DNA of 64,000 nucleotides from Candidatus Heimdallarchaeum aukensis (GCA_021513695.1 CP084166.1:864001-928000), one strand, 5' to 3'; counted from the stretch's first letter, positions 36,791-64,000 are shown. Numbers and translations: made by a program. Notes: generated by a model not told the origin, from the sequence alone.

Positions 36791-37529
36791 AGGCTTCTAA
36801 AAACTCTAAGATAATAAATAGTGCTGAGTATAGTGTCGTATGTTCAATTTATAAAGCATAGACTCAGAAAAATAGATGAACACCCACAATTACTTAAACC
36901 TTTATTTCAACCTAGATTCCTTGATACCCCTACTAACAAACAGGTCGAGAAGGAAGATTAAAACAGTGAGAACGGGCTGGATAGTAGCCTTAGCGCTGAT
37001 ATGTGCGTCTTTTTCTACGAGATAAGAACAGTATACAGAGCGGTTAAACCTTGTGAATAAGAAAATACAAAGTATAACACAACATACATTCCGCAAAAAA
37101 CATCCATCTTCAACGTTTGCACAGAGATAAAAAACTCCAAATAGTCCACACAATCACGTTAATAGTAAGAATGCTTTGCTCTTCTCCCGAAACAGTAGAA
37201 GAGGACAGGACAGGATTCAAGGTAAAAGGGGGTTGATTTAGAGTATTGCTAATGGAGTCACGCTTTACATAAAAACAAAGTCATTTTGGAAAGTCCACAA
37301 GATTATAGATTCCCCGATATTCATCCTCTCGGTTGCCCTCTCTCATTTCTACCGTTATAACCCCACACGAACAAGAGCATTTTTCAGAACCTAGAGAAAA
37401 AGACTTCTATGTAGAATTAGAAGATTTCATGCAGATAAAGCCCATCATAACAACAAACTGGGAGGGGGTTTCTCATCCAAGAGAGAATCAAATTTATTAT
37501 CGAACTAAAACGTAAACGTCGATCATGAC

Positions 37530-38330
37530 CTAATTATATAAATCACCTTTTTTTCCTTTGGGGATTGCTAATAAATAACCTTGTATCGTATCTCTAATGT
37601 CTGTGAAATCTCTAAATGGATTAGGATTACCTATAATTATTTCCTTATTTTCGCTTTTAAGAATCTTTGCAATCTGATTAAAAATTACTAAAGTTACAAA
37701 CATAATTTCTCTGTTTGGTCCAGTATTATTATATCCTCTTGTAACAACAATAGGCAATCCATACATACTATGATATTTAAGACTAAATTGTTCAGTAGCT
37801 ACCTTACTAGCTTCATATGGAGACTGTGGTCTAAGCGAATTGTTTTCATTAATAGGTATTTCGCCTAGAGATGGTAATCCATATTCTACACTACTCTCTG
37901 CAATCTGAATATCAATATCTAAATCTGAATTTCTTATTATTTCTAAAAGATTTACAGTACTTTCAATATTTGTACGTACAGCTTCAATAGGCCCCCAAAA
38001 TGAGAAAAGAACAAGACTGTGCTGGTAAGTGAAAGATATAACTTGGTTGGACTTCTTTGATAGTTATTTCTAATGATGAATAATCAATAAGATTAGCTTC
38101 CTTAAGTATAGTTTTATTAAGAAATTTATCAATTTTTGGATTTATTGGATTAGATTGTCTTCTTACAATACTATAAATTTCAACTTCTTGTTCCACAGAT
38201 AGTATTTTTTCTACTAAAGAGCTACCTACAAATCCTAATGTGCCAGTAATCAGAACCTTTTCTTGATGAAAACATGATTTGTCATACAGATCTCTTTTTT
38301 CTTTAGAAAATTTATTTTTATATTCATTAA
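37530..38330 (-). pseudogene. Degraded paralog of the Gmd-like GDP-mannose 4,6-dehydratase at 48601-49704
   Basis: Fragments in different frames align to the intact gene. KVLITGTLGFVGSSLVEK matches RVLITGITGFVGSHLAEK. VRRQSNPINPKI...EANLIDYSSLE...PSYIFHLPAQS matches VVRRQSVPNFPNI...EANLIDYSSLE...PDYIFHLAAQS. YGLPIVVTRGYNNTGPNRE...IIIGNPNPFRDFTDIRDTIQGY matches YGLPIVITRGFNHTGPRRG...IIIGNPKPIRDFTFIEDMIQGY. Frameshifts and stops interrupt them. Confidence 0.75.
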
Positions 38331-38688
38331 TATTGTCTGGATATATTAAGAATTTGCTTGTTTCTCATATATTTCTCAGTAAATTTTATCTTCAAAGAGC
38401 ATAAATAAACTAACGCTTTCTTAGTTTTTAAATTTAATAGCAAGTATTTTAATTTAAACTCATTATTTTTTCAATTTTTTTTTAAAAAAATTTGAAGAAT
38501 AAAATGTAAGAATGAACAAACTTAAAATTAATAATTAAATTCTGCTTCATTAAAATGCATTATTTACTATTTAAATTGTAACTAAATACATAAATACATA
38601 TATACACATATTATTGAAAATAATAAGATAACTTTAACAAACAAATTTATTACAAAAAATAAGAAAAACTTCACATTGGGGGAAATTT

Positions 38689-39387
38689 ATGACAGAAGGA
38701 AAATACAATAATCTAGTTATATTAATTCCAACGCTAAATGAGGAAGATTCTATTGGTTATTTAGTGAACTCATGTAAAAAATTGACAGATAATGTAATTG
38801 TTGTTGATGGGTTATCAATTGATGATACAGTGGTAATCTCTAAGAAAGAAGGGGCAGAAGTGATTTATTGCAAGAAAAAGGGAAAAGGTAATGCTATTAT
38901 AGACGGTTTAAAATACGTATTGAAGAAACCAAATATTGAATATATCGCATATTTGGATGGAGATAGTACATATGACCCTTATGACATAAAAATTCTGTTA
39001 GACAAGATGTTAAATGAAAAAAAACTTGATGTAATAATTGGTAACAGATTACCAAAAAGAGAAAAAGGTTCTATAAAATTTATAAATATAATTGGCAATT
39101 ATTTATTTTCTTTTTTAATTAGTCTAATAAGTAGGGTAAAAATAAGTGATTCACAATCAGGTCTTCGTTTATTATCTAAAAAAGCAACTATGATATATTC
39201 AGATTGTCTAGAGTCTTCTGGTTTTGATATTGAAACTGAAATGATCATTAAAGGGTCGAGAAAAGGTATTAAATTTGGTGAAGTTCCTGTTAGCTATAGG
39301 TGTCGTGAAGGAAATTCTAAACTTAATCCTTTTAGAGATGGATTTAAGATTTTAAAAACGATTATAAAATATAGTTTTAAAAGATAG
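38689..39387 (+). CDS. GT2 dolichyl-phosphate sugar synthase-like glycosyltransferase (Dpm1/AglD/AglJ-type)
   Basis: LVILIPTLNEEDSIGYLVNSCKKL...VVDGLSIDDT...YLDGDSTYDP matches the GT-A architecture of polyprenyl-phosphate glycosyltransferases. 232 aa. Confidence 0.75.
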   Translation: MTEGKYNNLVILIPTLNEEDSIGYLVNSCKKLTDNVIVVDGLSIDDTVVISKKEGAEVIYCKKKGKGNAIIDGLKYVLKKPNIEYIAYLDGDSTYDPYDIKILLDKMLNEKKLDVIIGNRLPKREKGSIKFINIIGNYLFSFLISLISRVKISDSQSGLRLLSKKATMIYSDCLESSGFDIETEMIIKGSRKGIKFGEVPVSYRCREGNSKLNPFRDGFKILKTIIKYSFKR

Positions 39388-40344: not shown

Positions 40345-41349
40345 AAAGCATGTCCAAAAATTAATTTTTATTAATGTGGGGGTTTATGTCGGAAGTATGA
40401 GTTTCTTTCAGATCATAGACCCCCACAAAGCAAGAGAATTCATAATCATTAATGAACCTTTCCTTAAGAAACTGGTGAAAGAGGAACCGAGAGAAAGTAA
40501 GAGAGGGAGAAAAAGAATAGCAGAAAGGTGGGTGATACTGGCTTTAGCGATCATTGCGAGAATAGAAGGAATTGCTTGGAGGAAGTTAGAGGAAAAGTTG
40601 TCTTTATGCGATTTTTTGATAGAAGAGGGGTGGATGAAGAAGATTCCTTCCAAATCTACTTTTCATGCAGTGTGGAGAGCGACAGAAAGTAAGTTGCTGG
40701 AGCGGTGGATAATAGATTTAGGTAGGGAAATAGTAAGGAAAAAAGGGTTGAAAGCTATGTCGGTGGATAGTTCAGGTTTTAAAATTCGTCAAGCTTCTGT
40801 TTGGCGTTTTCTCAAGTGGGCAAGAGGAGGACTAAAGAAAACCTCCAAACTTTTCTGGAAGATACACCTTATAGTTGGTTTACCCTCTCGAGCTATAGTC
40901 TCTCTTGCTCATTCTGCTAGTAACACTCACGATAGTAAAGTCTTCGGTTTACTATGGCAGAAACTTCCTTCTGCACTCTTGAGACCTTTCTTGAGATTCT
41001 ATGGAGACTGCGCTTACTGGACAGAAAATATCGTGGGACTTCTTAGCCAACATTCCTTTTTTCCTGTTATTCCTCCAAAAAGTAATGCTCGTTATCCCTC
41101 TCCTCCTCCTCTTGGACCAATAGTTCAAGCTCATCGTCTCTACCCTGGTCTCTATCGTCATAATCACCACCCCGAGTATCGTAGTAGTATTGAACATGTC
41201 TTTGGTCTCCTCAAACTCTCTCTTCCCCCGATTCTTGATCGCTTACCCTCCACCATCCTCTCTACCTTGTACAGTTCTCTTCTCTGTTACAACTACCTTT
41301 TACTCCTTCGGACTGTATAGTTGGTGAAAAAGAATTTTTGGACATGCTT
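40345..41349 (+). mobile_element. IS4/IS5-superfamily insertion sequence, copy 1 (about 1005 bp, 18-bp perfect terminal inverted repeats AAAGCATGTCCAAAAATT)
   Basis: Identical to the copy at 47464-48469 over its whole length except for one A insertion in copy 2. The inverted repeats were read at both ends. Flanks suggest a 3-bp duplication (TTT here, AAT at copy 2), but AT-rich flanks make that weak. Confidence 0.85.
40376..41320 (+). CDS. DDE transposase of the IS4/IS5 superfamily
   Basis: C-terminal YRSSIEHVFGLLK fits the R-x3-E-x6-K (YREK) signature of IS4/IS5 transposases. The ORF fills the element. Confidence 0.8.
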   Translation: MGVYVGSMSFFQIIDPHKAREFIIINEPFLKKLVKEEPRESKRGRKRIAERWVILALAIIARIEGIAWRKLEEKLSLCDFLIEEGWMKKIPSKSTFHAVWRATESKLLERWIIDLGREIVRKKGLKAMSVDSSGFKIRQASVWRFLKWARGGLKKTSKLFWKIHLIVGLPSRAIVSLAHSASNTHDSKVFGLLWQKLPSALLRPFLRFYGDCAYWTENIVGLLSQHSFFPVIPPKSNARYPSPPPLGPIVQAHRLYPGLYRHNHHPEYRSSIEHVFGLLKLSLPPILDRLPSTILSTLYSSLLCYNYLLLLRTV

Positions 41350-43317: not shown

Positions 43318-44080
43318 GGTAGTGTCTAGTTTTTATACCACCTCCTAGGTAAAAAGGAACTAAGGGGAGGATGTCCCAAGCTCTGATGAGGACGAACGAA
43401 ATTATAATGGAGCATAAAGAGAGTAAGAAAACCAGAAAGATGAGTAGAGCCATAGACGGCACGGATAGGACAAGTGCAGTGGAGAATAGAATGAAACCAA
43501 CGATAACTCTTAAGAGTAGCATTAAAACGTTCAATATAGGAGCGTAAACCACCTTTGATAACGGAGATTTTGATACCTAGACGAAGTAAGACAGGATACC
43601 ATACCCCTGCATCTGTAACGACAATACGGGGCTTAAAACCCCAACATTTGAGCCAATAACGGAAAGTTAGTAAACATTCAAGATTACTCCGTCCTTTAGT
43701 AATACTAAAACCCAGTAAAGTCTTGTTGTAAGGATCTAACGCGAACCACAGATATATTGAGCCTTGAGAGGTCCTAATCTCTGTTTCATCTACTACTATA
43801 ATCTCTGGTATTCCCCCTCTCTCTGCTACAACTCTATGTAAACTTTCCCTAAAGAGCCTGAACTTCTTTACCCAATACCATAATGTTTGATGCGTTAAAC
43901 CATTCTTCCATGCTACTGTCCTCAACCCATTCTTTGAACCAATATATTCATAAATCGCTTTTATTATTATTTTTTTGGGGACTCTGCATCTCTTAAAAAG
44001 AGCAGATAGTTTTTGTGTTTTCATATCTTACTATTAGAGTCCCCACAAATATTTTTGTCGGAAGAAAACTAGACACTACC
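43318..44080 (-). mobile_element. IS6-family-like insertion sequence (about 763 bp, 16-bp perfect terminal inverted repeats GGTAGTGTCTAGTTTT, 9-bp direct target duplication CTTCACTAG)
   Basis: The inverted repeats start with GG as in the IS6 family. The CTTCACTAG duplication sits at 43309-43317 and 44081-44089. The single ORF spans almost the whole element. Confidence 0.75.
43326..44024 (-). CDS. DDE transposase, IS6-family-like
   Basis: 232 aa. VVDETEI, VVTDAGVWY and IERFNATLKSYRW blocks resemble the D, D and E/K regions of IS6/IS26-type transposases. There is an N-terminal HTH-like region. Confidence 0.7.
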   Translation of the reverse strand: MKTQKLSALFKRCRVPKKIIIKAIYEYIGSKNGLRTVAWKNGLTHQTLWYWVKKFRLFRESLHRVVAERGGIPEIIVVDETEIRTSQGSIYLWFALDPYNKTLLGFSITKGRSNLECLLTFRYWLKCWGFKPRIVVTDAGVWYPVLLRLGIKISVIKGGLRSYIERFNATLKSYRWFHSILHCTCPIRAVYGSTHLSGFLTLFMLHYNFVRPHQSLGHPPLSSFLPRRWYKN

Positions 44081-47463: not shown

Positions 47464-48469
47464 AAAGCATGTCCAAAAATTAATTTTTATTAATGTGGGG
47501 GTTTATGTCGGAAGTATGAGTTTCTTTCAGATCATAGACCCCCACAAAGCAAGAGAATTCATAATCATTAATGAACCTTTCCTTAAGAAACTGGTGAAAG
47601 AGGAACCGAGAGAAAGTAAGAGAGGGAGAAAAAGAATAGCAGAAAGGTGGGTGATACTGGCTTTAGCGATCATTGCGAGAATAGAAGGAATTGCTTGGAG
47701 GAAGTTAGAGGAAAAGTTGTCTTTATGCGATTTTTTGATAGAAGAGGGGTGGATGAAGAAGATTCCTTCCAAATCTACTTTTCATGCAGTGTGGAGAGCG
47801 ACAGAAAGTAAGTTGCTGGAGCGGTGGATAATAGATTTAGGTAGGGAAAATAGTAAGGAAAAAAGGGTTGAAAGCTATGTCGGTGGATAGTTCAGGTTTT
47901 AAAATTCGTCAAGCTTCTGTTTGGCGTTTTCTCAAGTGGGCAAGAGGAGGACTAAAGAAAACCTCCAAACTTTTCTGGAAGATACACCTTATAGTTGGTT
48001 TACCCTCTCGAGCTATAGTCTCTCTTGCTCATTCTGCTAGTAACACTCACGATAGTAAAGTCTTCGGTTTACTATGGCAGAAACTTCCTTCTGCACTCTT
48101 GAGACCTTTCTTGAGATTCTATGGAGACTGCGCTTACTGGACAGAAAATATCGTGGGACTTCTTAGCCAACATTCCTTTTTTCCTGTTATTCCTCCAAAA
48201 AGTAATGCTCGTTATCCCTCTCCTCCTCCTCTTGGACCAATAGTTCAAGCTCATCGTCTCTACCCTGGTCTCTATCGTCATAATCACCACCCCGAGTATC
48301 GTAGTAGTATTGAACATGTCTTTGGTCTCCTCAAACTCTCTCTTCCCCCGATTCTTGATCGCTTACCCTCCACCATCCTCTCTACCTTGTACAGTTCTCT
48401 TCTCTGTTACAACTACCTTTTACTCCTTCGGACTGTATAGTTGGTGAAAAAGAATTTTTGGACATGCTT
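47464..48469 (+). mobile_element. IS4/IS5-superfamily insertion sequence, copy 2 (identical to copy 1 apart from a single extra A)
   Basis: Same inverted repeats and internal sequence as 40345-41349. gggaaaatag here versus gggaaatag in copy 1 (~47836). Confidence 0.85.
47495..48440 (+). pseudogene. IS4/IS5 transposase gene, frameshifted (split into 47495-47890 and 47868-48440)
   Basis: A 1-nt insertion in an A-run breaks the reading frame relative to copy 1. This could be a genuine inactivating mutation or a homopolymer sequencing error. Confidence 0.75.
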
Positions 48470-52102: not shown

Positions 52103-53059
52103 TTAAATTTTTGCTTTTGATCTAAAAGGTAATTTAGCAGAAATAGCTTTCCAATCCATGATAAAGTATTCTATTACCAAATCAATAACTAGTACAATAA
52201 TAGAAACTATACCAACCAAAGGAATAGTACTGAAAAATCCTAGAGCAAAATAAGTTGCCAGGTAGAGTAAATGAAAACTTGTAAATAAAGCAAAAGGAAG
52301 AATATTAGTTATTTTTTCGATTCTAAAATGTCCCGCAAAAATAGAGATTAGTATAACTGTTAAAGCAATAAAAACAAACAACAGAACAAGATAAAACCAA
52401 TACCAAACAACAATTATTCCTTTAGCAAGAAGAAATAGATTAAAGCGATAAGTTCCTTCAAAAGCTAAATAAAGAGGAATGTAACCCAAAAAAGGAACAA
52501 TTAAGTGATAAACAATTACAAGTAAATTTACTTTGTCTCTCCAAATTTTACGCTCTAAACGTAGTATAGAACTGAAAATTAAAACAATAAAAAACCAACC
52601 CATGTAATTAGTCCAAATAACACCAAAGTAAGTAAGAGGAGAAATATAAGTAGGCAAACCATATCCCCAATCCCAAAATCCACCATCAATTCTAATAGCA
52701 ATAGCATCCATAGTTAGATCAAGTGTTAAAGCTAACAAAGTGTCTAAAAAAGGGCGAGATATAGGATGCAAACCAAAATGGTCAGTAGTATCCATTGAAC
52801 AGGTAATAATCATTGCCCAACAAAAAGCAACAACTAATGGGACATTGTTGGGAGCACGACCAAACTGTAATAGAAAAAGAGTTGAATAGTGATAACTGTC
52901 ATATAAGAAGATACTCAGATACTCAATACTCAAACCAAATAAAGTAGCGGAAAGGAAATTCAACAAACGAGACCATCGCTTAAGAAAAATAAATCTGACT
53001 AGAAATACAAGATAAAGGACTTCAAAATAAATCTCAAAAAAATAAGTAAGCCAAACCAT
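52103..53059 (-). CDS. Polytopic membrane protein, unknown function
   Basis: 318 aa, 8-9 hydrophobic segments, W/Y/F-rich, no assignable motif. Confidence 0.4.
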   Translation of the reverse strand: MVWLTYFFEIYFEVLYLVFLVRFIFLKRWSRLLNFLSATLFGLSIEYLSIFLYDSYHYSTLFLLQFGRAPNNVPLVVAFCWAMIITCSMDTTDHFGLHPISRPFLDTLLALTLDLTMDAIAIRIDGGFWDWGYGLPTYISPLTYFGVIWTNYMGWFFIVLIFSSILRLERKIWRDKVNLLVIVYHLIVPFLGYIPLYLAFEGTYRFNLFLLAKGIIVVWYWFYLVLLFVFIALTVILISIFAGHFRIEKITNILPFALFTSFHLLYLATYFALGFFSTIPLVGIVSIIVLVIDLVIEYFIMDWKAISAKLPFRSKAKI

Positions 53060-54355: not shown

Positions 54356-55588
54356 ATGGAAGAAAGTAAAGACTACTTTTACGACATCCAATTAGATAAA
54401 AAAAATTCTTTAAATAATCAAATGAGAGAAACTCTTCAATCCTTTATTAATTCATTTCCTTTCTATGTTATGCTTATTGACGAGGATCATCACATTCAGC
54501 TTGCTAACAACGCTATCTTAGACCAATTGAAAATGGATCCTACTGCTATTGTTGGTTGTTATTGTCCTTCCAAAATTCACGGTTTAGATTCTCCTTTTGC
54601 TGGTTGTCCTCTTGAAGCATCTAAATCTTCTCTTAAAGCTATTGAACGAGAATATTATTTTAAAGAAGAAGACAGGTGGGTTCGCTCTACTGCTTATCAT
54701 ACTAATATTTTTACTCCTGAAAACAAACGTCTTTTTATTCATCTTACTATTGACATTACTGCTCAGAAGAATGCTGAAAATAAATTGAAGCGTTCTGAGG
54801 AGAAGTATCGTCTTCTTGCTTCTAAATTACAAAAGCTTAATGATTTACATAAGAAATTGAATGAGATCCAAGAGATTTTTATTTACGAACGAGATAAGAC
54901 TTCTTTAATTCATCGTATATGTTCAAAGTTGTCAGAACTTATTAGTTATGATCTTTGTTGGATAGGTATTTTAGATTCAGGTAAGTTAAAGATTTTGGCT
55001 AGTTCTAGTTCTGATTCTGATTCTGGTTCTAGTTCAAGTTCTAGAATTAAAGACTTTTTTACTACTGAAATTGACCTTCATTCCGATGGTCGTTATTCTT
55101 GTTTACATAAGGTTATTGAGCAAAAACAATTAATTGTTATTAACAAGGATAATTTTTCTTGTTCTGATTGTCTATTCCACGACACTTCTTCACCTAATTC
55201 TATCTTAATCTTTCCTATGATTGTTAACGACAATGTTTATGGTATTATCAGTTTATATAAGTCTGAGAGTCACATCTCTGAAAACGAGATATCTATTTTA
55301 CAGACTGTTGCTAATGCTTTAGCTTTTGCTCTTCAATCTATTGAATTAATTGAAAGTCAGAATGAAGCTTTTTCTCAGCTTAAGAGAAATATTGATTATT
55401 TAGAAGATATAATCGATAAAATTAGAAATCCTCTTACTGTTATTCAAGGTTTCGTTGAACTTTATATGAAAGATAAAAGCAGTGCAGCTATCATTAAAGA
55501 ACATATTAACCAAATTGTAGAGATTCTTTCTAAAGTTGACGAAAAATATATTCGTTCTACTGACTTATTCAAACAGTATACTGAATAA
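54356..55588 (+). CDS. PAS plus GAF domain sensor protein without recognisable kinase or output domain
   Basis: The ORF track starts at 54275; the likely start MEESKDYFY at 54356 is preceded by aggagaagtgtagga. A PAS-like N-terminal half (FPFYVMLIDEDHHIQLANNAIL...GCPLEASK...TIDITAQKNAE) is followed by a coiled linker and a GAF-like C-terminal half. It is a paralog of 61883-63076. Confidence 0.6.
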   Translation: MEESKDYFYDIQLDKKNSLNNQMRETLQSFINSFPFYVMLIDEDHHIQLANNAILDQLKMDPTAIVGCYCPSKIHGLDSPFAGCPLEASKSSLKAIEREYYFKEEDRWVRSTAYHTNIFTPENKRLFIHLTIDITAQKNAENKLKRSEEKYRLLASKLQKLNDLHKKLNEIQEIFIYERDKTSLIHRICSKLSELISYDLCWIGILDSGKLKILASSSSDSDSGSSSSSRIKDFFTTEIDLHSDGRYSCLHKVIEQKQLIVINKDNFSCSDCLFHDTSSPNSILIFPMIVNDNVYGIISLYKSESHISENEISILQTVANALAFALQSIELIESQNEAFSQLKRNIDYLEDIIDKIRNPLTVIQGFVELYMKDKSSAAIIKEHINQIVEILSKVDEKYIRSTDLFKQYTE

Positions 55589-55864
55589 ATAATTTTAACT
55601 TTCTTTTGCAGCTCTATTATAGTTAACAGTCTTAACAATTAATTTATTTTGTCTGTACTTATGATTTTTACTTTTTATGTTTCTTACCTGTTGAAGAGAT
55701 AAGAAAACATTTGAACATTAGTAATAATGTAAATGGTTCTATAGAAAAATCTCTATTTACGCTTGAGATTTAAATGAATTAAAAAACTCTTTTCAAATAT
55801 CTCAAATTTACTTAAATATTTCTAAGCTTTGATTTTTTGGAGTAAACCTCGATTTAATTTTTTA

Positions 55865-56068
55865 CTATCCTTCTGTTATCTTTCGCTTTTTGACCTTTGT
55901 GATTTGAATAGTTCCATCATAAAAAAGTATCCATCTAATTTTATCTCCATTTTTAAGTTCTAGAGCTTCCACAATCTCTTTTGGGACAGTTGTTCTTCTC
56001 CTACTTTCGCGTATTGTCAATGTTGTTTCTGTTACAAATTCTACTTCGTCTAAATCTACTTTTGGCAT
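55865..56068 (-). CDS. AbrB/MazE/SpoVT-type swapped-hairpin DNA-binding protein
   Basis: 67 aa. TVPKEIVEALELKNGDKI fits the looped-hinge helix motif (v.IPkeiRe.lgikeGD.l). No partner toxin ORF was found on either side. Confidence 0.55.
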   Translation of the reverse strand: MPKVDLDEVEFVTETTLTIRESRRRTTVPKEIVEALELKNGDKIRWILFYDGTIQITKVKKRKITEG

Positions 56069-56276
56069 GTTTATGTGATTAATTTATAACATATATATTT
56101 TTTGGTTGTAATCCAAACTGTTTTGCTAATAAGATAATTAATGTTATCAGAACACATACATGTATTGTCAATTTTTATTCGTCACAAGAACTATCTTATA
56201 CTCCACATTACATTGGTGTGACGTAATACTTATATGGACAATTACCAATGGCCATCAAAACAAGGATAGTGAGATA

Positions 56277-57221
56277 ATGATGGATGCTATTACAACCTTT
56301 TCATTTGGATTATATCTTTTATTTGCATTTATAGCTTTAATTTGTGAATATATTGATTCAGCTTTAGGTGGGGGATATGGAACTATTCTTGTTCCTGTAA
56401 TGATGATCGCCTTTAATATTGATAAGAAATTCCTTATTCCTGCTGTTCTTGTCAGCGAGACAGTCACTGGTCTTGGTTCAGCATTGCTTCATCATTATGT
56501 AGGCAATGCGAATTTTAATATACGAAAAAAGAATAATTCAAGTGAATTCAATAAAACAAATGATATTCTAAAGAGATACAATTCTCCATCTAGTATAATT
56601 AAAGAAAACGGTTACTGTCAAAATTTCTTCTATAGATCTCTAATTACTCGTGCTAAAGATTTTCTTAATAGTTTTAAGGTTTCAGACGACTTTAAAGTTT
56701 CAATGATTTTAGGTTTCTTTGGTATTATTGGTGGCATTTCAGCTGCTTTTCTTTCTTTAAGATTATCTCAAACTTTTGTCAAGATATATATTGGAGCACT
56801 TGTCTTTTTAGTCGGTTTGTTTGTTTTAATAGGTTTCAAATGGAAATTCACGTGGGTTAAAATCTCCATTATTGGTCTAGTTGCAGCGTTTAATAAAGGT
56901 TTATCAGGTGGAGGATATGGACCTCTTATTTCCTCAGGTCAGATTGTTGTAAACCGCAATCCTCGCCAAGCTGTTGCTTCAACTTCACTAGCTGAAGCTT
57001 TAGTATGTATCTCTTCCTTGGTTGTTTATTTTTCTTGCCCAGAAATTACCTTTAATTTTGGTTTCTTGTTTCTCTTACTTTCTCTTTTTATAGGAGCAAC
57101 CCTTTCTGCTCCTCTAGCGGTTCTAACTGTAAAGTATATACCACTTAAGAAAATGCAACCAATTGTTGGACTTGTAACCATGTTATTAGGAATTTTTACG
57201 TTGGTTAAGGTCTTCATTTGA
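56277..57221 (+). CDS. TauE/SafE (DUF81) family anion exporter (sulfite/sulfonate-type permease)
   Basis: Two internal repeats each carry the G-rich signature (ALGGGYGTILVPVMM and GLSGGGYGPLISSGQ), separated by a long hydrophilic loop. The start is taken at 56277 (the ORF-track ORF begins earlier at 56160). Confidence 0.6.
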   Translation: MMDAITTFSFGLYLLFAFIALICEYIDSALGGGYGTILVPVMMIAFNIDKKFLIPAVLVSETVTGLGSALLHHYVGNANFNIRKKNNSSEFNKTNDILKRYNSPSSIIKENGYCQNFFYRSLITRAKDFLNSFKVSDDFKVSMILGFFGIIGGISAAFLSLRLSQTFVKIYIGALVFLVGLFVLIGFKWKFTWVKISIIGLVAAFNKGLSGGGYGPLISSGQIVVNRNPRQAVASTSLAEALVCISSLVVYFSCPEITFNFGFLFLLLSLFIGATLSAPLAVLTVKYIPLKKMQPIVGLVTMLLGIFTLVKVFI

Positions 57222-57665
57222 AACAAATTTTTATTAATTATTTTATTTTCAGCAAAAGTTCTCTTACTTCAGGTGGGGATAGTTCATACTGCAATTTTCA
57301 CTTTTCACTTGGTGGATACAAAAAGCGAAATAGTAAATTAGTAAAGTAAAAGCAAATAAAACTAGACTTCTTCACTAAAGAATATGATATACTAAATCTC
57401 TATACTCTATTCTCTTCTCTTCTCTTTTCTTTTCTTTTCTTTTCTTGGTTGTATGCATGACTTATTTTTTTACGTAAGTTTGTAAAAATTGAATTGAGGG
57501 AGGAGTGAATGTAAAAAAGAAAAAAGAAAAAAGAAAGGAGGAAGGGAGAAGAGAGGAAAATGAGGGGTTTTTATAAGGAAAAAAGGTATAAGTAAGTAAG
57601 AAGAGAAGAAGAAAAGTAAAAAAAAGAAAGAAAAAAAAAGAAAAAAAAGGAAGGAGTAAAGAAGG

Positions 57666-59126
57666 ATGGAGGGCGTCGTTAAAACCTTGAAAGTGAGAAT
57701 AAAGAATGAGGTGTTGACGACTAGAAAAAAGCTAAGGTTAAGGAGAATAACGGGGAGAGACACAAGGATTATAGAAAAGTATGTGAGAATAATACACCAT
57801 AACAGAAGAAAGATATGTATACGAACCAAAAAAGGGAAAATAAGAGTACATAGAGGAAAATTAGATGAGTTGACGCTTACTACTTCAAAAGTTAAAGAAG
57901 AAGAGATGAGAACGACTGTTCCTCACGACCTTAAGAAAATGTTTCCTTACTGTTCTCACAATGAGTTTCAAGAGTGTAGAGATATAGCTGTGCAACTGTA
58001 CGAGCAAGGATATCGACCCAGTTCTAAACGTCCTCTCATAAAGAGAGTAAGAAGGCAACTAATTAATGGAAAAAGATTCATCCTTGTTCATCTACCAAAA
58101 GAAAAGAATAACACTCTTACTCGTTGGTGGGTGGGAATAAGAGACTCGTTAGACACGTGGAAAAGAAATACCCCCTACCATCAGAAGTTGTGGTTACCTT
58201 TAGAGATAAGCACTTTTCATCAGAAAGAGTTGAAAAAAGGACAAGTGAAAAGCCTAGAATTAAGATATAAGCATTCTACACGTGAGTGGTGGGTGTATTT
58301 TCAACTAAAAGTTCTCCCTCCTTCTTCTTTTCTAAGCGATAATTCCTCTTCTTCTTCTCTTCCTCCAGCTGTGCTGGGAATAGATCTGGGGATAAACATT
58401 CCAGGTGCAGGAGTGCTTCTAGCCCCTAAAAAGAAGTTAACTATTAAAGAGATAAAATTCTGGTATACCAAACAGTGGAATAAATTTAATCATAGATATA
58501 AACTTAAACTTTCCCGTCTTCAGAGGAAAGCGGCTTTAAATGACCAGTCGGGTAAAAAACACCAAATTTATCGTTTTCTTGGATATCTTCGAAGAAGATA
58601 TAGAAACGTTAAACGAGCCTATATTCACCAATTTGTAAGCGATATTGTGCGGACAATAGAGAGTTATGCGCAAGTGTATGATCTTTTTGTCGTCGTAGGT
58701 TACCCCAAAAATGTTAGAAAAGGAAAAGGAAAAGAAAAAGGGAAAAGTAAAAGTACTCGTTATTTTCGCAGAAAACTTCATCAGTGGAACTATGCTCATG
58801 TTCTTGGTCTTCTCCGTCGAGCATTGATATTAAGAGGTTTTGCTCCTCACCGCATTCTTATAATAGACGAAAGAGGAACATCTTCTCATTGTTCACGTTG
58901 TGGAAAAGAAGTTTCTCGTCCCGTCAGAGGGTTAGTCTCTTGTCCCTCTTGTAACTATACCTTCCACTCTGATTTAACAGGAGCTAGAAATATTGCTCTT
59001 AAGTTCCTTAGTCATCTTTTTCGTCCCCGTGTTACAACTATTACTGATTACTTTACTGGTCAAAAATTCAGTCTTACCCATTACACTGTTTGCCGAGGGC
59101 TCAGCCATTGGTTGCAGTCCCAGTAG
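57666..59126 (+). CDS. tnpB: TnpB (OrfB_IS605) RuvC-like RNA-guided endonuclease
   Basis: RuvC-I GIDLGINIPGAG, RuvC-II IIDERGTS, the zinc finger CSRCGKEV...CPSCNY and RuvC-III HSDLTGARNIAL near the C-terminus. The N-terminal half matches the OrfB_IS605 wedge/REC-like region. Confidence 0.85.
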   Translation: MEGVVKTLKVRIKNEVLTTRKKLRLRRITGRDTRIIEKYVRIIHHNRRKICIRTKKGKIRVHRGKLDELTLTTSKVKEEEMRTTVPHDLKKMFPYCSHNEFQECRDIAVQLYEQGYRPSSKRPLIKRVRRQLINGKRFILVHLPKEKNNTLTRWWVGIRDSLDTWKRNTPYHQKLWLPLEISTFHQKELKKGQVKSLELRYKHSTREWWVYFQLKVLPPSSFLSDNSSSSSLPPAVLGIDLGINIPGAGVLLAPKKKLTIKEIKFWYTKQWNKFNHRYKLKLSRLQRKAALNDQSGKKHQIYRFLGYLRRRYRNVKRAYIHQFVSDIVRTIESYAQVYDLFVVVGYPKNVRKGKGKEKGKSKSTRYFRRKLHQWNYAHVLGLLRRALILRGFAPHRILIIDERGTSSHCSRCGKEVSRPVRGLVSCPSCNYTFHSDLTGARNIALKFLSHLFRPRVTTITDYFTGQKFSLTHYTVCRGLSHWLQSQ

Positions 59127-59400
59127 ATAAAAAAGTTCCTTTCTTTTATATCAAGGGATAGGTTCTTTTTTGTCTCTCGTGGAGTGAAGAAAGAAAAAGT
59201 TCTTTTCTTCTTTATGATTCCCATGATTCGTGTATGAGGTCTGTCTCAACCCCTCCCATTCATTGTATTATTGGTTGAGTTCGCAAGAGATCAAACTTTC
59301 TCCTTGCTTGTTTTTTCTCTTGAAAGACTGAGTGCGAAAAACTTACGTAAAAAAGTAAATCATAATCTCTTAATTTGTTAATAACCACACTTATCATTCA
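59127..59400 (+). ncRNA. Candidate omega-RNA (reRNA) region at the 3-prime end of the tnpB element
   Basis: Known TnpB systems transcribe a guide RNA that overlaps the tnpB 3-prime end and the right end of the element. This stretch has elevated GC and stem-forming segments, e.g. gttgagttcgcaagag...ctccttgcttg. Extent and strand are inferred, not demonstrated. Confidence 0.3.
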
Positions 59401-59466
59401 TTCAAGTTGTCTAATAAATGCCTATAGAAATACTCTTTAAGTGATGTTGTTAGATTTTATTTACTT

Positions 59467-60027
59467 ATGCATTTTGTAATTATTTTTGGTCCTCCTGCTG
59501 TTGGTAAAATGTCTGTTGGTAAAGAACTAGCCAATATTACCGGTTTCAAATTATTTCATAATCATATGTCTATTGAACTCGTTTTGACTCTTTTTGATTA
59601 TGGTACTCCTGAATTTAAGCAACTGAATTCTTCTATCCGCAGATTAATTTTCGAAACTGTTTCTTCTAGTAACTTAAGTGGTTTTATTTTTACTTTTGTT
59701 TGGGCTTTTAACATCCCTGAAGATAAACAATATGTTGAATTTGTTTCTGAAATTTTCAGAAAGAATAATTGGAAAGTTTATTTTGTTGAATTACAGTGTA
59801 GTCTTCAAGAGCGTTTAAGAAGAAATAAAACTGAAGAACGATTAAGAGAAAAACCTTCCAAACGCTCAATTAAAGAATCAGAGCAAAGGTTATTGGAGTG
59901 CGAAAAAAAATATGTTTTAAACACTCAGGGAGATTTTTATTTTCCTGAAAAATATATTAAAATTGATAATACTTCCCTTTCTGCTATTGAAGTAGCGGAG
60001 AGAATTAAGAGTTATTTCAACTTTTAA
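59467..60027 (+). CDS. P-loop NTPase/small-molecule or nucleotide kinase-like protein (AAA_33-like) with atypical Walker A (GPPAVGKM)
   Basis: MHFVIIFGPPAVGKMSVGKELA, then a lid-like basic region. 186 aa. Family placement is tentative. Confidence 0.4.
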   Translation: MHFVIIFGPPAVGKMSVGKELANITGFKLFHNHMSIELVLTLFDYGTPEFKQLNSSIRRLIFETVSSSNLSGFIFTFVWAFNIPEDKQYVEFVSEIFRKNNWKVYFVELQCSLQERLRRNKTEERLREKPSKRSIKESEQRLLECEKKYVLNTQGDFYFPEKYIKIDNTSLSAIEVAERIKSYFNF

Positions 60028-60314
60028 GTCGTATAGTATTTTATTGTGTGTTCTTTGCTATTTTTACTATTTTTTATAGTTACTAATTTTTTTCTCAAGT
60101 GTTATTTTTCTTGTTCTTTCAGGTTTGGAAGATTTGTTTATTAGGATCCTTTATTTCATACAGTTGATTTTTTCTAATAAACTATCAAGTGTAAGGAAAA
60201 CAACTAATTCAATTTAATCAAATAAATTTTCTTTAGCTTCTGACTCTTCTCTTATTCTCAAAATTCTCATTTTTTTAACTAAAAACTTTTAAGATTTATT
60301 CAGATAATAACTAT

Positions 60315-61418
60315 ATGGGTCAACTTAACAAACCCCTTGAGCTATTAACCACCTTAAGCAACCATAATGGTTCTATTTCATCTATTAGAGCTGATAAAAC
60401 TTATCTTTACTCTGGTTCGAAAGATGATACTTTAAGAATTTTTAAAAAGAGTAGTTGGGAAGAGGTTACTTCTTTAGTTCATTCGTCTTGGGTTAATTGT
60501 ATAGAAGTAGACACTGAAAAGGTTTACTCTGGCTCTAGTGATTCAACTGTTCGAGTTTGGAAAAAAGGTTCCTGGGGTTTAATTTCTTCCATTAAACATT
60601 CTCGTTTTTCTATTGTTAAAGACATTGCCGTTGATAAAGAGCACTGCTATGTTGTTCTAACTGATCGCTCTTTGATTATCTATTCTAAACAAAAGTTTGT
60701 TGAACAGGATAAACTTACTCATACTGGCATAGTTCAATCAGTAGAGGTTGATAACACTAATATTTATTCATCTCTAAGCGATGGAACAGTTGTTATCTGG
60801 ACTAAGAATAATTACGAAGTGGAGAAAGTATTAACTCTTTCTTCTTTTAAAACAGTAGAACAGCTGGAAATAGATAATGCTTACATTTATACTTCTGTTG
60901 GCAAGAACATTAAAGTTTTTGATAAGAAAAAAAAGGAAGTGGTTAAAGAATTAAAAATCAACAAAGGTATAGTTTCTTTAACAGTCGACGACTCACTTTT
61001 ACTTGTAGCTTCTAAAGACAAGAAAGTTTACATGTGGAAGAAAGAAACATACAAAGAATACTCTCCTCTAATTATTGATAAAGCAATTACTTATATCTAT
61101 TCTGACAATGAATTTATTTATGTGGGTTGCAAAAATGGAGAAATAAAGATTTATACCCATCCAATAAAAAGAAAAACTATAAAAAAACAACCAACAAGAA
61201 CAAAAAAGGTTACTAAAAAAGCTGAAAAAGCCCAAAAAACAGAAGAGCCTATTAAAAAAACTAAAGAAGATAAAAAAGAAAAGAAAAAATCAAAGGATTA
61301 CACTGTCAAAGAAGCAAAAGAGCTTATGAGTAAAATGAGCAATGAAGAGATACTAGAGTTTACAGAAGGAGATAAAAGAGTAACAATACAGAAATATCGA
61401 GAAAAAGAACAAAAATAA
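60315..61418 (+). CDS. Seven-bladed WD40-type beta-propeller protein with a about 90-aa lysine-rich (histone H1/HMG-like) C-terminal tail
   Basis: Seven ~40-aa repeats end in motifs such as TLRIFKKSSWEE, TVRVWKKGSWG, TVVIWTKNNYE, KVYMWKKETYK and EIKIYTHP. The tail reads KKQPTRTKKVTKKAEKAQKTEEPIKKTKEDKKEKKKSKD. Confidence 0.6.
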   Translation: MGQLNKPLELLTTLSNHNGSISSIRADKTYLYSGSKDDTLRIFKKSSWEEVTSLVHSSWVNCIEVDTEKVYSGSSDSTVRVWKKGSWGLISSIKHSRFSIVKDIAVDKEHCYVVLTDRSLIIYSKQKFVEQDKLTHTGIVQSVEVDNTNIYSSLSDGTVVIWTKNNYEVEKVLTLSSFKTVEQLEIDNAYIYTSVGKNIKVFDKKKKEVVKELKINKGIVSLTVDDSLLLVASKDKKVYMWKKETYKEYSPLIIDKAITYIYSDNEFIYVGCKNGEIKIYTHPIKRKTIKKQPTRTKKVTKKAEKAQKTEEPIKKTKEDKKEKKKSKDYTVKEAKELMSKMSNEEILEFTEGDKRVTIQKYREKEQK

Positions 61419-61882
61419 CTATTTTGCTTTTTTTCTTCTAACACCTTTTTATTTCTTTAATTTTAATATTGGCTATTTTCTTAAATTAGAAAAATAATAC
61501 ATTTTCATAAAGGAAGAAAAGCAGAAATTGACATTGTAATAAAGACTGGCTTCAATTTAACCGTAGTTTCTGTAACAACAAGTAGAACAATAGGTTTGAT
61601 TAAATTAAAACTGTTTGAAGTTCTGCATGTTCTCTTAACCCAGTCCTCACAACTTTCGATATGTTTGTTGACCGGTTGGGTAGAGTCCTGAAGAAATTAA
61701 GTAAAATTTCAACTCATGGAACAAATCAAATTGGAGGAATTCATTCAATGGTTGTTTTGGTCACATTATTGGAAAAATAGCAAGTAGAACAGCTAAAGAG
61801 AGATATCTCTGTTTGAGTTAAAAAATAGAATAAAAATTGTAGGAAAAGAAAAAATAGGTAAGTTATCTGAAATATTACACGT

Positions 61883-63076
61883 TTAAGGTTGATTATACAT
61901 ATCTTGCTCTTTTAGCATTTTTGTTGTTTCTTTATATTTTTTATCTATTTTTTTCATTTTTTTAATAATTTTGTCTATTTGTTCGCGAAAAAGTTGATAC
62001 ATTCCATTTGTTTCGAATTTTAAATCGCTCATTCCTTTCATTACCGTTAAGGGATTTACTATTTGGTCTAGTAATTCTTCTAGTTCTTTTTTGTTCTGTA
62101 ATAATTGGTTTAGCGCTTTTTCTCTTTCTTCGTTAATTTCCAGCATTTCTATGGAAAAACCTAATTCGTTCGCTATTGTGCTAAGAATCACTTCTTCATG
62201 TTCAAAGAACTCTTCCCGTTCTGTTAATAATACCATTATCCCAAATTGTTTCTGTGCTGCGAACATTGGAATAATGACTATATAGCGTGGAGTTTTTCTC
62301 TGTAAAATTGTTGAAGGTACAGCAAGTTCTCTTGCAGAAAAAATTGCATTCTGGTCAAGTTTTACTTTTCTGTTCAATTTATCTAAAAAATTGTATAACT
62401 CTTGTTTTTCTACTTCAGTCAAGTGAGGTCTTGAATTGAGCAATTCTAGCTTTTCATCTTTTTTTCTCAAAATAAAACAATATGTGTAATCGCGGAACTT
62501 ACTTAGTTCTCTAGAGATTGTATCAACCAATACTTGTTTATCTTTAATGTAAATTAGTTTGTTTTGCACAGAAACAGTTACTTTTCCTAACTCGTATATT
62601 TTTTCCAGTTTTTTGGAAAGAAGTTCGAACTTTTCACTTGCTTCAATTAGTTTTTCCTCAGCAAGTTTTCTTTTGGTTATATCAACAGTATAACAAATAA
62701 AGACTCTTTTTCCTTCGTATGTGTAAAAGTTGCTAAAATAAACTCCTGAAATCAACCAACTTTTTTCACCGTATTTGATCTCTCGTTGCACATTTTTTGA
62801 AATCGCTATAGCTTTTTCCAATGGACATCCGCGAAATAGATTATTGACCCCGTGAACAAGATGAGAACAATATCTTCCTATAATTTGTTTTTTTTCTAAA
62901 CCCAATTTTTTTTGGAAAATATCATTAACTAACAGTATGTTATGCTTTTCATCTACTAAAATTATTGGATAAGAAAAACTATCTATGAAACTCTGGATTA
63001 TTGCTATACATTCTTTTGTTAGAATAATTTTCTCTTTTGGTAAACTTACTGGAAAAGTAACATCTTCTCTAATCAT
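61883..63076 (-). CDS. PAS plus GAF domain sensor protein (paralog of 54356-55588), no output domain
   Basis: Shares blocks with the other copy: F[PS][FY][YP]...L[IV]DE.H.I.L.N....GCPLE....ITKRK/ITAQK...plus a coiled linker, and C-terminal ...NPLTV[MI][QK]G... It has host-like NNA codon usage. Confidence 0.6.
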   Translation of the reverse strand: MIREDVTFPVSLPKEKIILTKECIAIIQSFIDSFSYPIILVDEKHNILLVNDIFQKKLGLEKKQIIGRYCSHLVHGVNNLFRGCPLEKAIAISKNVQREIKYGEKSWLISGVYFSNFYTYEGKRVFICYTVDITKRKLAEEKLIEASEKFELLSKKLEKIYELGKVTVSVQNKLIYIKDKQVLVDTISRELSKFRDYTYCFILRKKDEKLELLNSRPHLTEVEKQELYNFLDKLNRKVKLDQNAIFSARELAVPSTILQRKTPRYIVIIPMFAAQKQFGIMVLLTEREEFFEHEEVILSTIANELGFSIEMLEINEEREKALNQLLQNKKELEELLDQIVNPLTVMKGMSDLKFETNGMYQLFREQIDKIIKKMKKIDKKYKETTKMLKEQDMYNQP

Positions 63077-63131: not shown

Positions 63132-63977
63132 TTATCTTTTGCCTTTGAATTTTTTCTTTTTTCTTCTAACCATTAAAAGTACAAAACTTAGAGTTGCAAA
63201 AAAACCTAAATAGACTATCAACTCAAGAGCTGTTGGTTTGTCTTGATAACCAAATAACGATCTTAAGAATCGCCCTATTTCTGTATTTTTATCATCTATA
63301 AATCCACTAGTATCCCATAACTGTTTTTGTAGCCAATATGTTTCTGGCCCAAACCAGTTTATTTCTTGTAGTTCATGTATTCCATAAGTAAACATTCCTG
63401 CAGCAAAGAAAACTAGAAGAATACCTGTTGTTATGAAAAAAGCTTTTATGTTTATTCTCTTTCCTGATAGGAAAACTAAAGCAGCTACTATCAACGCTAC
63501 AACTAGACCTAATACCCCTGACCAAAGCATAGTAAAATAGTTTCCTTCTATTGCTTCTACTCCTGATAGAAACAGAACTGTCTCTACTCCTTCTCTTAGG
63601 ACAGAAAAAACTGTTAATAATAACACCCCGTATTTCTTGCTCTCTTCTAATGTTTGGTCAACCTTTCTTTCTAATCCTTCTTTTATTTTTGACCCCTCTG
63701 AGCTCATCCAGATTATCATCCAACCTAATAGGAGTGAAGCAATGATCATTGTAAAACCTTCAAATATTTCTTCATATCCGCTAAACCCACCTAGTAATAG
63801 TTGGAATAAGACTGCGAAAACGATTGATAGGACTATTCCTATTACCGTTCCTACCCATATCTGTTTTTTCAACTTTCTTTGCTCTATTTTAGAAACATAA
63901 ACTAAAAGTATTCCTACTATTAAAGCAGCTTCCAGAACTTCTCTGAAAGTTATTAGAAAACTGGCTGTGCTAAACAT
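63132..63977 (-). CDS. FTR1/EfeU-family high-affinity iron permease
   Basis: Two RExxE motifs in TM helices, FREVLEAALIVG and LREGVETVLFLSG. About 7 TM, 281 aa. Confidence 0.75.
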   Translation of the reverse strand: MFSTASFLITFREVLEAALIVGILLVYVSKIEQRKLKKQIWVGTVIGIVLSIVFAVLFQLLLGGFSGYEEIFEGFTMIIASLLLGWMIIWMSSEGSKIKEGLERKVDQTLEESKKYGVLLLTVFSVLREGVETVLFLSGVEAIEGNYFTMLWSGVLGLVVALIVAALVFLSGKRINIKAFFITTGILLVFFAAGMFTYGIHELQEINWFGPETYWLQKQLWDTSGFIDDKNTEIGRFLRSLFGYQDKPTALELIVYLGFFATLSFVLLMVRRKKKKFKGKR

Positions 63978-64000
63978 TAGACATTTCCATCCTTTTTCAT

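Follow-up and report, generated by a model that had tools for sequence, protein, structure and literature searches.

We studied a pair of sensor genes in a 64-kb stretch of Candidatus Heimdallarchaeum aukensis DNA (GC ~28%), the whole of which is called the window here. Copy 1 lies at 54356-55588 on the plus strand and encodes 410 aa, and copy 2 lies at 61883-63076 on the minus strand and encodes 397 aa. Both products have database matches of 100% identity from Ca. Heimdallarchaeum aukensis (P0001 for copy 1 and P0008/UJG41593.1 for copy 2). They have the same architecture, a PAS domain, a coiled-coil helix, a GAF domain, and a DHp-like hairpin without a CA domain (open reading frame (ORF) calls and AlphaFold2 models for both, Pfam for copy 1, and BLASTP to copy 1 for copy 2). 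BLASTP aligned 357 aa of the two proteins at 32% identity and 52% positives (E 3e-58). The alignment begins in the PAS domain, reaches the C-terminus, and spans almost the whole length, far past generic PAS/GAF fold likeness. Three blocks (GCPLE, DITxxK, and NPLTVxxG) are common to both, and Pfam and AlphaFold place PAS before GAF in each. The paralogy, common domain order, and shared motif blocks proposed in a first-pass annotation of this DNA are therefore upheld by pairwise alignment and domain scans. On this sequence comparison, copies 1 and 2 are true, anciently diverged paralogs. Synonymous sites between them are saturated (proportion of synonymous differences, pS, 0.78), so their ratio of nonsynonymous to synonymous divergence (dN/dS) has no estimate and dN = 0.75 alone is meaningful.

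The first-pass annotation described both proteins as having no kinase, GGDEF, or HTH output. Catalytic and DNA-binding outputs are absent as claimed, but the last ~100 aa are a HisKA/DHp-like hairpin. In copy 1 the hairpin spans aa 309-409 up to the protein end (55280-55582, plus strand), with modelled helices at 309-370 and 374-409. In copy 2 it lies at 61895-62203 on the minus strand, with helices at 292-353 and 358-394. Pfam HisKA scores 30.5 bits on copy 1 against a cut-off of 26.9, and aa 356-394 match profile positions 13-57; the match begins two residues past Asp354, at profile position 13. Pfam HisKA falls short of detecting the hairpin of copy 2, yet the alignment matches it column by column and the model gives it the same form. 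Because the alignment, Pfam HisKA, and the models agree, the NPLTVxxG block can be assigned to the H-box of a DHp hairpin.

Two genuine PAS-GAF-HisKA-HATPase kinases provide the reference for this region. Their H-boxes, vaHtIRNPL (P0005) and vgHdIRNPL (P0006), align to the copy 1 segment iiDkIRNPL and the copy 2 segment llDqIVNPL. The position of the phospho-acceptor His is thus occupied by Asp354 in copy 1 (GAT codon, 55415-55417, plus strand) and by Asp337 in copy 2 (62066-62068, minus strand; alignments and translation). Both kinases run on into HATPase_c where the two copies end after the second DHp helix, with 56 aa (copy 1) and 60 aa (copy 2) following the Asp. Neither copy has a Pfam HATPase_c match, and both models end at helix 2. 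There is no conserved His elsewhere in the hairpin, and the copy 2 hairpin holds no His whatever. Both copies are histidine-kinase derivatives in which Asp stands at the phospho-acceptor position and the ATPase domain is lost. Because the CA domain is lost and Asp replaces His, neither is predicted to autophosphorylate.

Proteins with an Asp H-box and no CA domain are not confined to this genus. Profile searches in which Asp was not required found P0116, a 749-aa multi-PAS-GAF protein whose contig also encodes methylene-H4MPT dehydrogenase, and a Methanospirillum hungatei set of REC-PAS-PAS proteins (e.g., WP_011449909). A full-length profile HMMER search of 1.8 billion representative proteins placed giant multi-PAS/GAF proteins with summed scores at the top, and its useful yield was P0116 and a few single-stretch kinases only. 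A metagenome scan with the pattern D[KGQ][IL][RV]NPL[TA][VAI][IMA] matched 300 stretches, 169 of them encoding relatives, and 80 loci were fetched. These gave a non-redundant set of 65 proteins that end 53-83 aa past the Asp, with a CA domain in 0/65. Asp occupies the His position in both copies, in their Heimdallarchaeaceae orthologs, in P0116, and in the M. hungatei proteins.

The subfamily signature is AxxQ[IL]xxN[IL]xx[FL]AxLxDx[IL]RNPLxxIxG, followed by one further helix and then the stop. Conservation extends well outside the scan pattern (A-16, 76%; Q-13, 77%; I/L-12, 98%; N-9, 95%; F/L-5, 89%; L-2, 95%; G+11, 74%). Copy 1 fits the signature at every position, and copy 2 does too, save for Val in place of Arg at +3 and L/I-type substitutions. 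At +1 the residue is K, G, or Q, with an acidic one in no member, and Asn at +4 is invariant. In HisKA proteins an acidic +1 residue is the rule for kinase activity, and T or N at +4 for phosphatase activity (quoted in bioRxiv 10.64898/2026.02.27.708494). The retained Asn at +4 and the absent acidic residue at +1 would fit a phosphatase or binder rather than a kinase.

Loss of a catalytic domain can also mark a gene in decay, and copies 1 and 2 could be functionless, truncated remnants of full-length histidine kinases. Genuine PAS-GAF-HisKA-HATPase kinases (P0167, P0172, P0005, and P0006) are the full-length proteins most closely related to them, and the ortholog in metagenomic contig L003 has a 48-aa in-frame GAF deletion and a shifted start. 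However, all 65 non-redundant relatives stop after helix 2 with a signature unlike canonical HisKA, and both paralogs have intact ORFs and confident folds. The dN/dS of copy 1 against its orthologs is 0.18-0.30 (0.23-0.30 against the 88% and 79% identical orthologs); judged from these ratios, copy 1 is under purifying selection. Decay is therefore a very improbable explanation of the shared architecture.

Gene neighborhoods and fusions point to a partner for the hairpin. An N-terminal REC domain is present in 12/65 subfamily members. In 15 of the 58 evaluable loci (those with enough downstream sequence), a REC ORF lies directly downstream on the same strand, with its start at -43 to +97 bp relative to the stop codon. 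These ORFs are mostly single-domain (113-135 aa), and they are often translationally coupled. As background, a REC gene follows only 3/281 of the remaining ORFs of these loci (minimum length 200 aa; odds ratio 32, Fisher p 3e-10). The nearest relatives of copy 1 outside Heimdallarchaeum (L030, L031, L033, and L034) have 29-31% identity over the GAF-hairpin region (E 1e-30 to 1e-40), and a downstream REC gene is found in 4/4 of them. The downstream REC proteins retain the acidic pocket/D13, D57, and K109. The subfamily is thus strongly linked to REC domains, which are either fused N-terminally or supplied by the gene of a small single-domain response regulator directly downstream. As a separate observation, the T87/Y106 switch pair of these REC proteins seems to have given way to F/Y and V/I/L, an unusual combination (MAFFT alignment; L030, L031, L033, L034, L036, L040-L043, L047, and L084).

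The window itself offers no such partner. An iterated REC profile hidden Markov model (HMM; E <= 1) found no REC ORF in the 64 kb, and HMM searches of all window ORFs found no HATPase_c ORF. Copies 1 and 2 are orphans over this distance, and therefore any partner is encoded elsewhere. The first-pass annotation had suggested that such output-less proteins may act through protein partners, which is probable, and it had named the small AbrB-like gene directly downstream of copy 1 as a candidate. This gene (55865-56068, minus strand; 67 aa) encodes an AbrB/MazE-fold protein (Pfam MazE_antitoxin, 34 bits; NCBIfam PrlF/AbrB). It is downstream of copy 1 by position only, being on the opposite strand and convergent, with 276 bp between the stop codons, and for this reason it is not co-transcribed with copy 1. 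Adjacency of the two genes, repeated in L003, is what speaks for AbrB as the signaling partner. Against it, a 91-bp divergent spacer joins AbrB to the neighboring exporter gene TauE instead, the DNA-binding core of AbrB is deleted in L003, and the gene is missing beside the 57%-identical copy 1 ortholog in L001, where the neighbors are entirely different. Homologs of AbrB, FTR1 (the permease gene next to copy 2), and TauE were found in none of the 80 subfamily loci; the recurrent neighbor or fusion there is REC, and a conserved PAS-GAF plus AbrB neighborhood is not borne out. We consider AbrB scarcely credible as the partner of copy 1.

Interaction with a separate histidine kinase is another way in which the hairpin could signal. 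In this model the Asp hairpin docks or heterodimerizes with the DHp of a kinase and acts as a detachable sensor or inhibitor. There is precedent in RetS, which inhibits GacS via DHp-DHp contacts. In locus L027 (7277-10250), a 232-aa minimal kinase without a sensor (DHp His in RHDISN, plus HATPase_c) is encoded 25 bp upstream of P0116 on the same strand, and in the M. hungatei locus L028 a HAMP-HATPase_c kinase lies two genes downstream. The L027 kinase and P0116 together resemble a "split" sensor kinase. The model stays alive because of this L027 arrangement, but it is unlikely: a CA-containing ORF is near only a few of the 65 loci, most of these ORFs are large, distant multidomain kinases, directly adjacent REC genes are far commoner, and the window has no HATPase_c ORF. 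A REC domain is the preferred partner for the hairpin.

PAS domains occupy the input end of both proteins, at 54416-54754 on the plus strand in copy 1 (aa 21-133; secondary structure of the model and a 20-sequence alignment) and at 62681-63016 on the minus strand in copy 2 (Pfam and AlphaFold model). The PAS subtype has a recognizable pattern, FPFYVMLIDEDHHILLAN...G.YCP..VHGLD.PF.GCPLEEA. In the 20-sequence alignment, C70, H75, C84, and P85 of copy 1 are invariant and H45 and P71 are near-invariant (nt 54488-54610). The conserved Cys/His/Cys-Pro residues suggest a ligand for metal, haem, or redox sensing, as far as residue conservation can indicate this. The same PAS type occurs elsewhere joined to HisKA+HATPase, HisKA_3+HATPase, HD-GYP, or GerE-HTH outputs (38-44% identity to copy 1), and it is therefore a portable input module. 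The literature yielded no description of this Cys/His PAS type, a PDB sequence search gave no closely related solved structure for either the PAS or the GAF domain, and Foldseek against PDB returned generic PAS-GAF matches only (phytochrome and DosP) at low template modelling (TM) scores. A phytochrome-type photosensory module was considered and rejected (TM 0.22-0.34, root-mean-square deviation >22 A, 8-14% identity); it has the same domain order only, and the copies have no PHY domain. A GTDB genome scan by pattern gave no Heimdall loci among the matches listed; the patterns matched generic PAS ends. Outside Heimdallarchaeaceae, the nearest PAS domains among the matches listed are in high-GC bacterial kinases, L007 (Polyangiaceae metagenome-assembled genome (MAG)) and P0005/L004 (contig of GC 0.68). 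Their identity is 39-40% over ~140 aa (39% for the Polyangiaceae kinase), and the Cys/His PAS module may have undergone inter-domain transfer.

A 43-residue helix joins PAS to GAF in the AlphaFold2 models, which have mean predicted local distance difference test (pLDDT) scores of 81.5 for copy 1 and 81.8 for copy 2. The GAF domains, at 54896-55279 (plus strand) in copy 1 (aa 181-308; Pfam GAF_2, 49 bits; model) and 62222-62539 (minus strand) in copy 2 (Pfam and AlphaFold model), differ in detail. Copy 1 has Cys249 and Cys269-x2-Cys272, a C...CxxC arrangement also present in P0004 and P0116, and copy 2 has a helical insert in its place; because of this difference, the two copies are not redundant. 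Copy 1 GAF also carries a poly-Ser/Asp insert, SSSSDSDSGSSSSS, at aa 219-234 (55010-55054). The insert is disordered in the model (pLDDT <50), variable in length among orthologs, and missing from copy 2.

Mobile DNA has contributed to the present spacing of the two genes. From its end at 64000 back to 61715, the window matches three MAG contigs of Heimdallarchaeaceae (L024-L026) at 98.7% identity. The alignment to L025 and L026 then leaps from 61715 to 57459 with a 4-nt overlap (CATG). Because these contigs go straight on at 57459, the segment 57460-61714 is a 4,255-bp indel polymorphism. Each junction bears CATG (57456-57459 and 61715-61718). The indel carries TnpB (57666-59126; Pfam and NCBIfam; GC 0.38), an AAA-type kinase (59467-60027), and a WD40 protein (60315-61418). 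The left junction is closely flanked by a CT-rich run (57400-57446) on its outer side and, on its inner side upstream of tnpB, by a long GA-rich run (57500-57665). Aloposons (Wu et al., 2022) were considered and rejected, as the 4.26-kb insert has no giant genes or tRNA integration sites. Scanning the window for Rfam families and tRNAs gave no hits.

Copy 2 is 168 bp from the right edge of the indel, and copy 1 is 1.9 kb from the left edge with AbrB and TauE in between. TauE (56160-57221, plus strand) encodes a TauE/SafE-family anion exporter (Pfam TauE, 78 bits) and is also present in L003, L025, and L026. The description of the copies as bracketing an island therefore holds loosely, in that they flank the indel, but copy 1 is set off from it behind an AbrB-TauE pair that is conserved in relatives. 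The copy 1-AbrB-TauE block has 93-96% DNA identity in L003, and copy 1 has 91% in L002; the flank upstream of copy 1 varies among relatives. In L003 (1462-2867), the 48-aa deletion in the copy 1 ortholog is at the end of GAF, the 5' end is different, and AbrB has lost its core to a deletion of ~60 bp; these changes may mean that the block is decaying in that strain, or they may be an artefact of assembly. On the other side, an FTR1-family iron permease (63132-63977, minus strand; Pfam FTR1, 167 bits) precedes copy 2 by 55 bp in the same orientation and is probably co-transcribed with it. The FTR1-copy 2 pair has equal spacing in L024-L026, but this conservation counts little because these contigs are 98.7% identical. 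Without the insertion, the order is copy 1 (plus), AbrB (minus), TauE (plus), copy 2 (minus), and FTR1 (minus), with the paralogs convergent and ~2 kb apart. Old paralogs around a transporter gene that were later parted by a TnpB-bearing insertion is a simpler account than island capture.

In the island proposal of the first-pass annotation, one copy uses an island T-ending dialect and the other the A-ending dialect of the host. We measured the contrast at 4-fold degenerate sites alone, which removes effects of amino-acid composition. It is real: copy 1 has T 111, A 12, C 4, and G 0 (T 0.87, A 0.09), and copy 2 has T 34, A 54, G 13, and C 12 (T 0.30, A 0.48; Fisher p = 9e-16; window median T/(A+T) 0.52). 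Read on the plus strand, T/(A+T) at these sites is 0.42-0.48 in 1-36 kb, ~0.50 in 36-48 kb, and 0.59-0.69 in 48-64 kb. All nine genes of 53.3-64 kb have a plus-strand T excess (0.60-0.90) in either orientation; read per gene, the same region gives 0.73 for plus-strand genes and 0.36 for minus-strand genes. Because the sign of the bias tracks orientation in nine genes, the direction of the contrast is a strand effect and does not reflect donor dialects. The opposing codon endings of copies 1 and 2 are for the most part explained by their opposite orientation, the plus strand being locally T-rich.

Acquisition of one copy on a horizontally transferred island, with its donor's T-ending codons still visible, has some observations in its favor. 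The T bias of copy 1 at 4-fold sites (T4) is the most extreme of 45 window ORFs (0.90, z = 2.6), and the indel AAA-type kinase is second (0.86). Transposase genes are T-biased (0.67-0.78), the upstream flank of copy 1 is variable as described above, and the minus-strand gene at 52103-53059, outside the indel, has a T bias of 0.74, contrary to the strand trend and to a pure strand effect. Both strongly T-ending genes, 59467-60027 and 52103-53059, have no informative family match. Against capture, copy 1 (54356-55588) lies outside the indel (57460-61714), its GC of 0.30 equals the local background (insertion sequence genes are 0.38-0.43), and the block containing it is conserved in L003. Its relatives at 57-90% identity are Heimdallarchaeaceae without exception, and the 57% ortholog is only mildly biased (0.59). 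Over the last 11 kb the bias is continuous among genes and flips with orientation, with no step at the indel borders. We consider island capture and differential amelioration quite improbable, and we retain the strand effect on old resident paralogs.

These observations can be combined in a mechanism. Copies 1 and 2 would dimerize via the hairpin, and a signal at PAS and/or GAF would pass down the coiled coil. The signal would alter REC binding by the Asp-bearing hairpin, such that REC is dephosphorylated, sequestered, or read out. We hold it evenly balanced whether the whole account is correct, namely that these are cytoplasmic, kinase-derived PAS-GAF-DHp sensors acting on REC partners, with old paralogy and a strand-driven codon contrast. 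We put forward with more reserve, and at somewhat less than even confidence, the wider proposal that the CA-less hairpin with Asp for His is an undescribed, signal-gated receiver-binding output module. It would act as a phosphatase, a phospho-His mimic, or a receptor for phosphorylated REC, work with single-domain response regulators in anaerobic archaea including Asgard, and be fed a metal, haem, or redox signal by PAS. A literature search found no description of an Asp-substituted, CA-less DHp.

Several points weigh against this account. A fused or adjacent REC is lacking in 40/65 subfamily members, and neither Heimdallarchaeum copy has a REC gene beside it, which leaves the partner as an extrapolation from relatives of only 25-31% identity. 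The invariance of Asp in the metagenome set was imposed by the scan pattern. Copy 2 has Val at +3 where Arg is otherwise invariant, and from this substitution copy 2 may have diverged in function. The Cys/His/Cys-Pro constellation in PAS would point to a metal, haem, or redox signal, which is a guess from the conserved Cys and His only. The literature yielded no biochemistry on any subfamily member. As to codon usage, GC3 skew does not follow AT skew, and the bias of copy 1 goes beyond the regional strand level (111/123 compared with 0.667, p 2e-9).

Selection on this gene or mutation linked to its transcription could account for the extra T-ending bias of copy 1, as when high expression favors NNT codons read by GNN tRNAs. 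Every 4-fold family is affected (GCT 16/18, GGT 9/9, CCT 9/9, ACT 15/15, GTT 11/12, and CTT 18/19), and A is avoided at 2-fold codons too (AAG 38% in copy 1 and 8% in copy 2). The 425-nt upstream spacer is also T-rich (0.70). Close copy 1 orthologs (dS 0.13-0.23) have kept the same excess (T4 0.84-0.85), but they are close enough for the bias to be simply inherited, and the window has no tRNA genes and no ribosomal or other reference high-expression genes. A gene-specific cause for the excess is possible, though rather unlikely, and would add to the strand effect that we take to set the direction of the contrast.

Other features were noted in the rest of the window. A large glycosyltransferase/sugar-nucleotide biosynthesis cluster fills most of 1-51 kb and is broken up by transposase genes (DDE_Tnp_1 and rve) at 40376-41320, 43326-44024, and 47495-48440, which have GC of 0.39-0.43 compared with ~0.28 around them. 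The ORFs at 47495-47890 and 47868-48440 look like a single split DDE gene. The interval 36800-38690 (1.9 kb) has no ORF of at least 120 aa, a slightly higher GC, and short ORF fragments, and it probably represents decayed genes within the glycan cluster. One fragment (37530-37766, minus strand) resembles by eye a piece of a sugar-nucleotide epimerase/dehydratase. Cumulative GC skew over the whole sequence reaches its lowest value near 37-38 kb. A replication origin at the skew switch was considered and rejected, as 36.5-40.4 kb contains no origin recognition box (ORB)-like repeats and only gene fragments, and GC3 skew is discordant.

Archaeal two-component signaling is poorly understood, and many archaeal response regulators are REC-only proteins without known partners. 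As a rule, "incomplete" kinases are disregarded or wrongly annotated as kinases. A coherent subfamily with Asp in the H-box, a phosphatase-type Asn, no ATPase domain, and frequent REC linkage provides a testable candidate for proteins that act on REC-only regulators. If the hairpin is truly a receiver-binding module, it is present in the Asgard lineage closest to eukaryotes. The locus also illustrates that apparent "codon dialects" can arise as a strand effect.

Compared with a canonical sensor histidine kinase, copies 1 and 2 have the DHp hairpin in common and are missing the phospho-acceptor His and the CA/HATPase_c domain. DHp four-helix bundles serve as interaction or transfer modules without autokinase activity in RetS-GacS, Spo0B, and ChpT. 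RetS, Spo0B, and ChpT retain a (pseudo-)CA domain, and Spo0B and ChpT also retain the His. To our knowledge, the Asp H-box signature is present in none of these three. In DivL the His is replaced by Tyr; the protein binds a single-domain response regulator with signal flow reversed and retains CA as an input surface. Copies 1 and 2 are comparable to this bacterial pseudo-histidine kinase of Caulobacter by analogy (PMC4211667), with Tyr and CA kept in DivL and with Asp and no CA in the copies.

Methanosarcina MA_type 2 kinases MsmS and RdmS are archaeal PAS/GAF proteins of the redox/haem type with kinase ancestry and no functional H-box or autophosphorylation (PMC11784639). Their loss is the mirror image: CA is kept, ATP is bound and hydrolysed, and the H-box region is gone, whereas copies 1 and 2 keep the H-box helix and have no CA (PMC11784639). 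REC-(PAS)n-HisKA regulators, among them Archaeoglobus fulgidus AF_1472 (Galperin et al., 2018), have the architecture of the REC-PAS-PAS-hairpin members of the subfamily (WP_011449909); regulators of this type have REC, and the Heimdallarchaeum copies have GAF and no REC. The closest described group is the archaeal "nonenzymatic HK-like proteins" or "HisKA, no HATPase" class (Galperin et al., 2018; PMC5847659), annotated under the label "possible incomplete histidine kinase" by P2CS. Like the copies, its members are cytoplasmic archaeal proteins with N-terminal PAS/GAF domains, a C-terminal HisKA-like domain, and no HATPase_c, and a response-regulator phosphatase role has already been proposed for them (PMC5847659). 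They are reported mainly from Archaeoglobi and Methanomicrobia, whereas copies 1 and 2 are from Heimdallarchaeia (Asgard), and their description includes a conserved His that perhaps still accepts phosphate, whereas every member examined here has Asp (PMC5847659). Copies 1 and 2 fit the "HisKA, no HATPase" class in all respects but the His.

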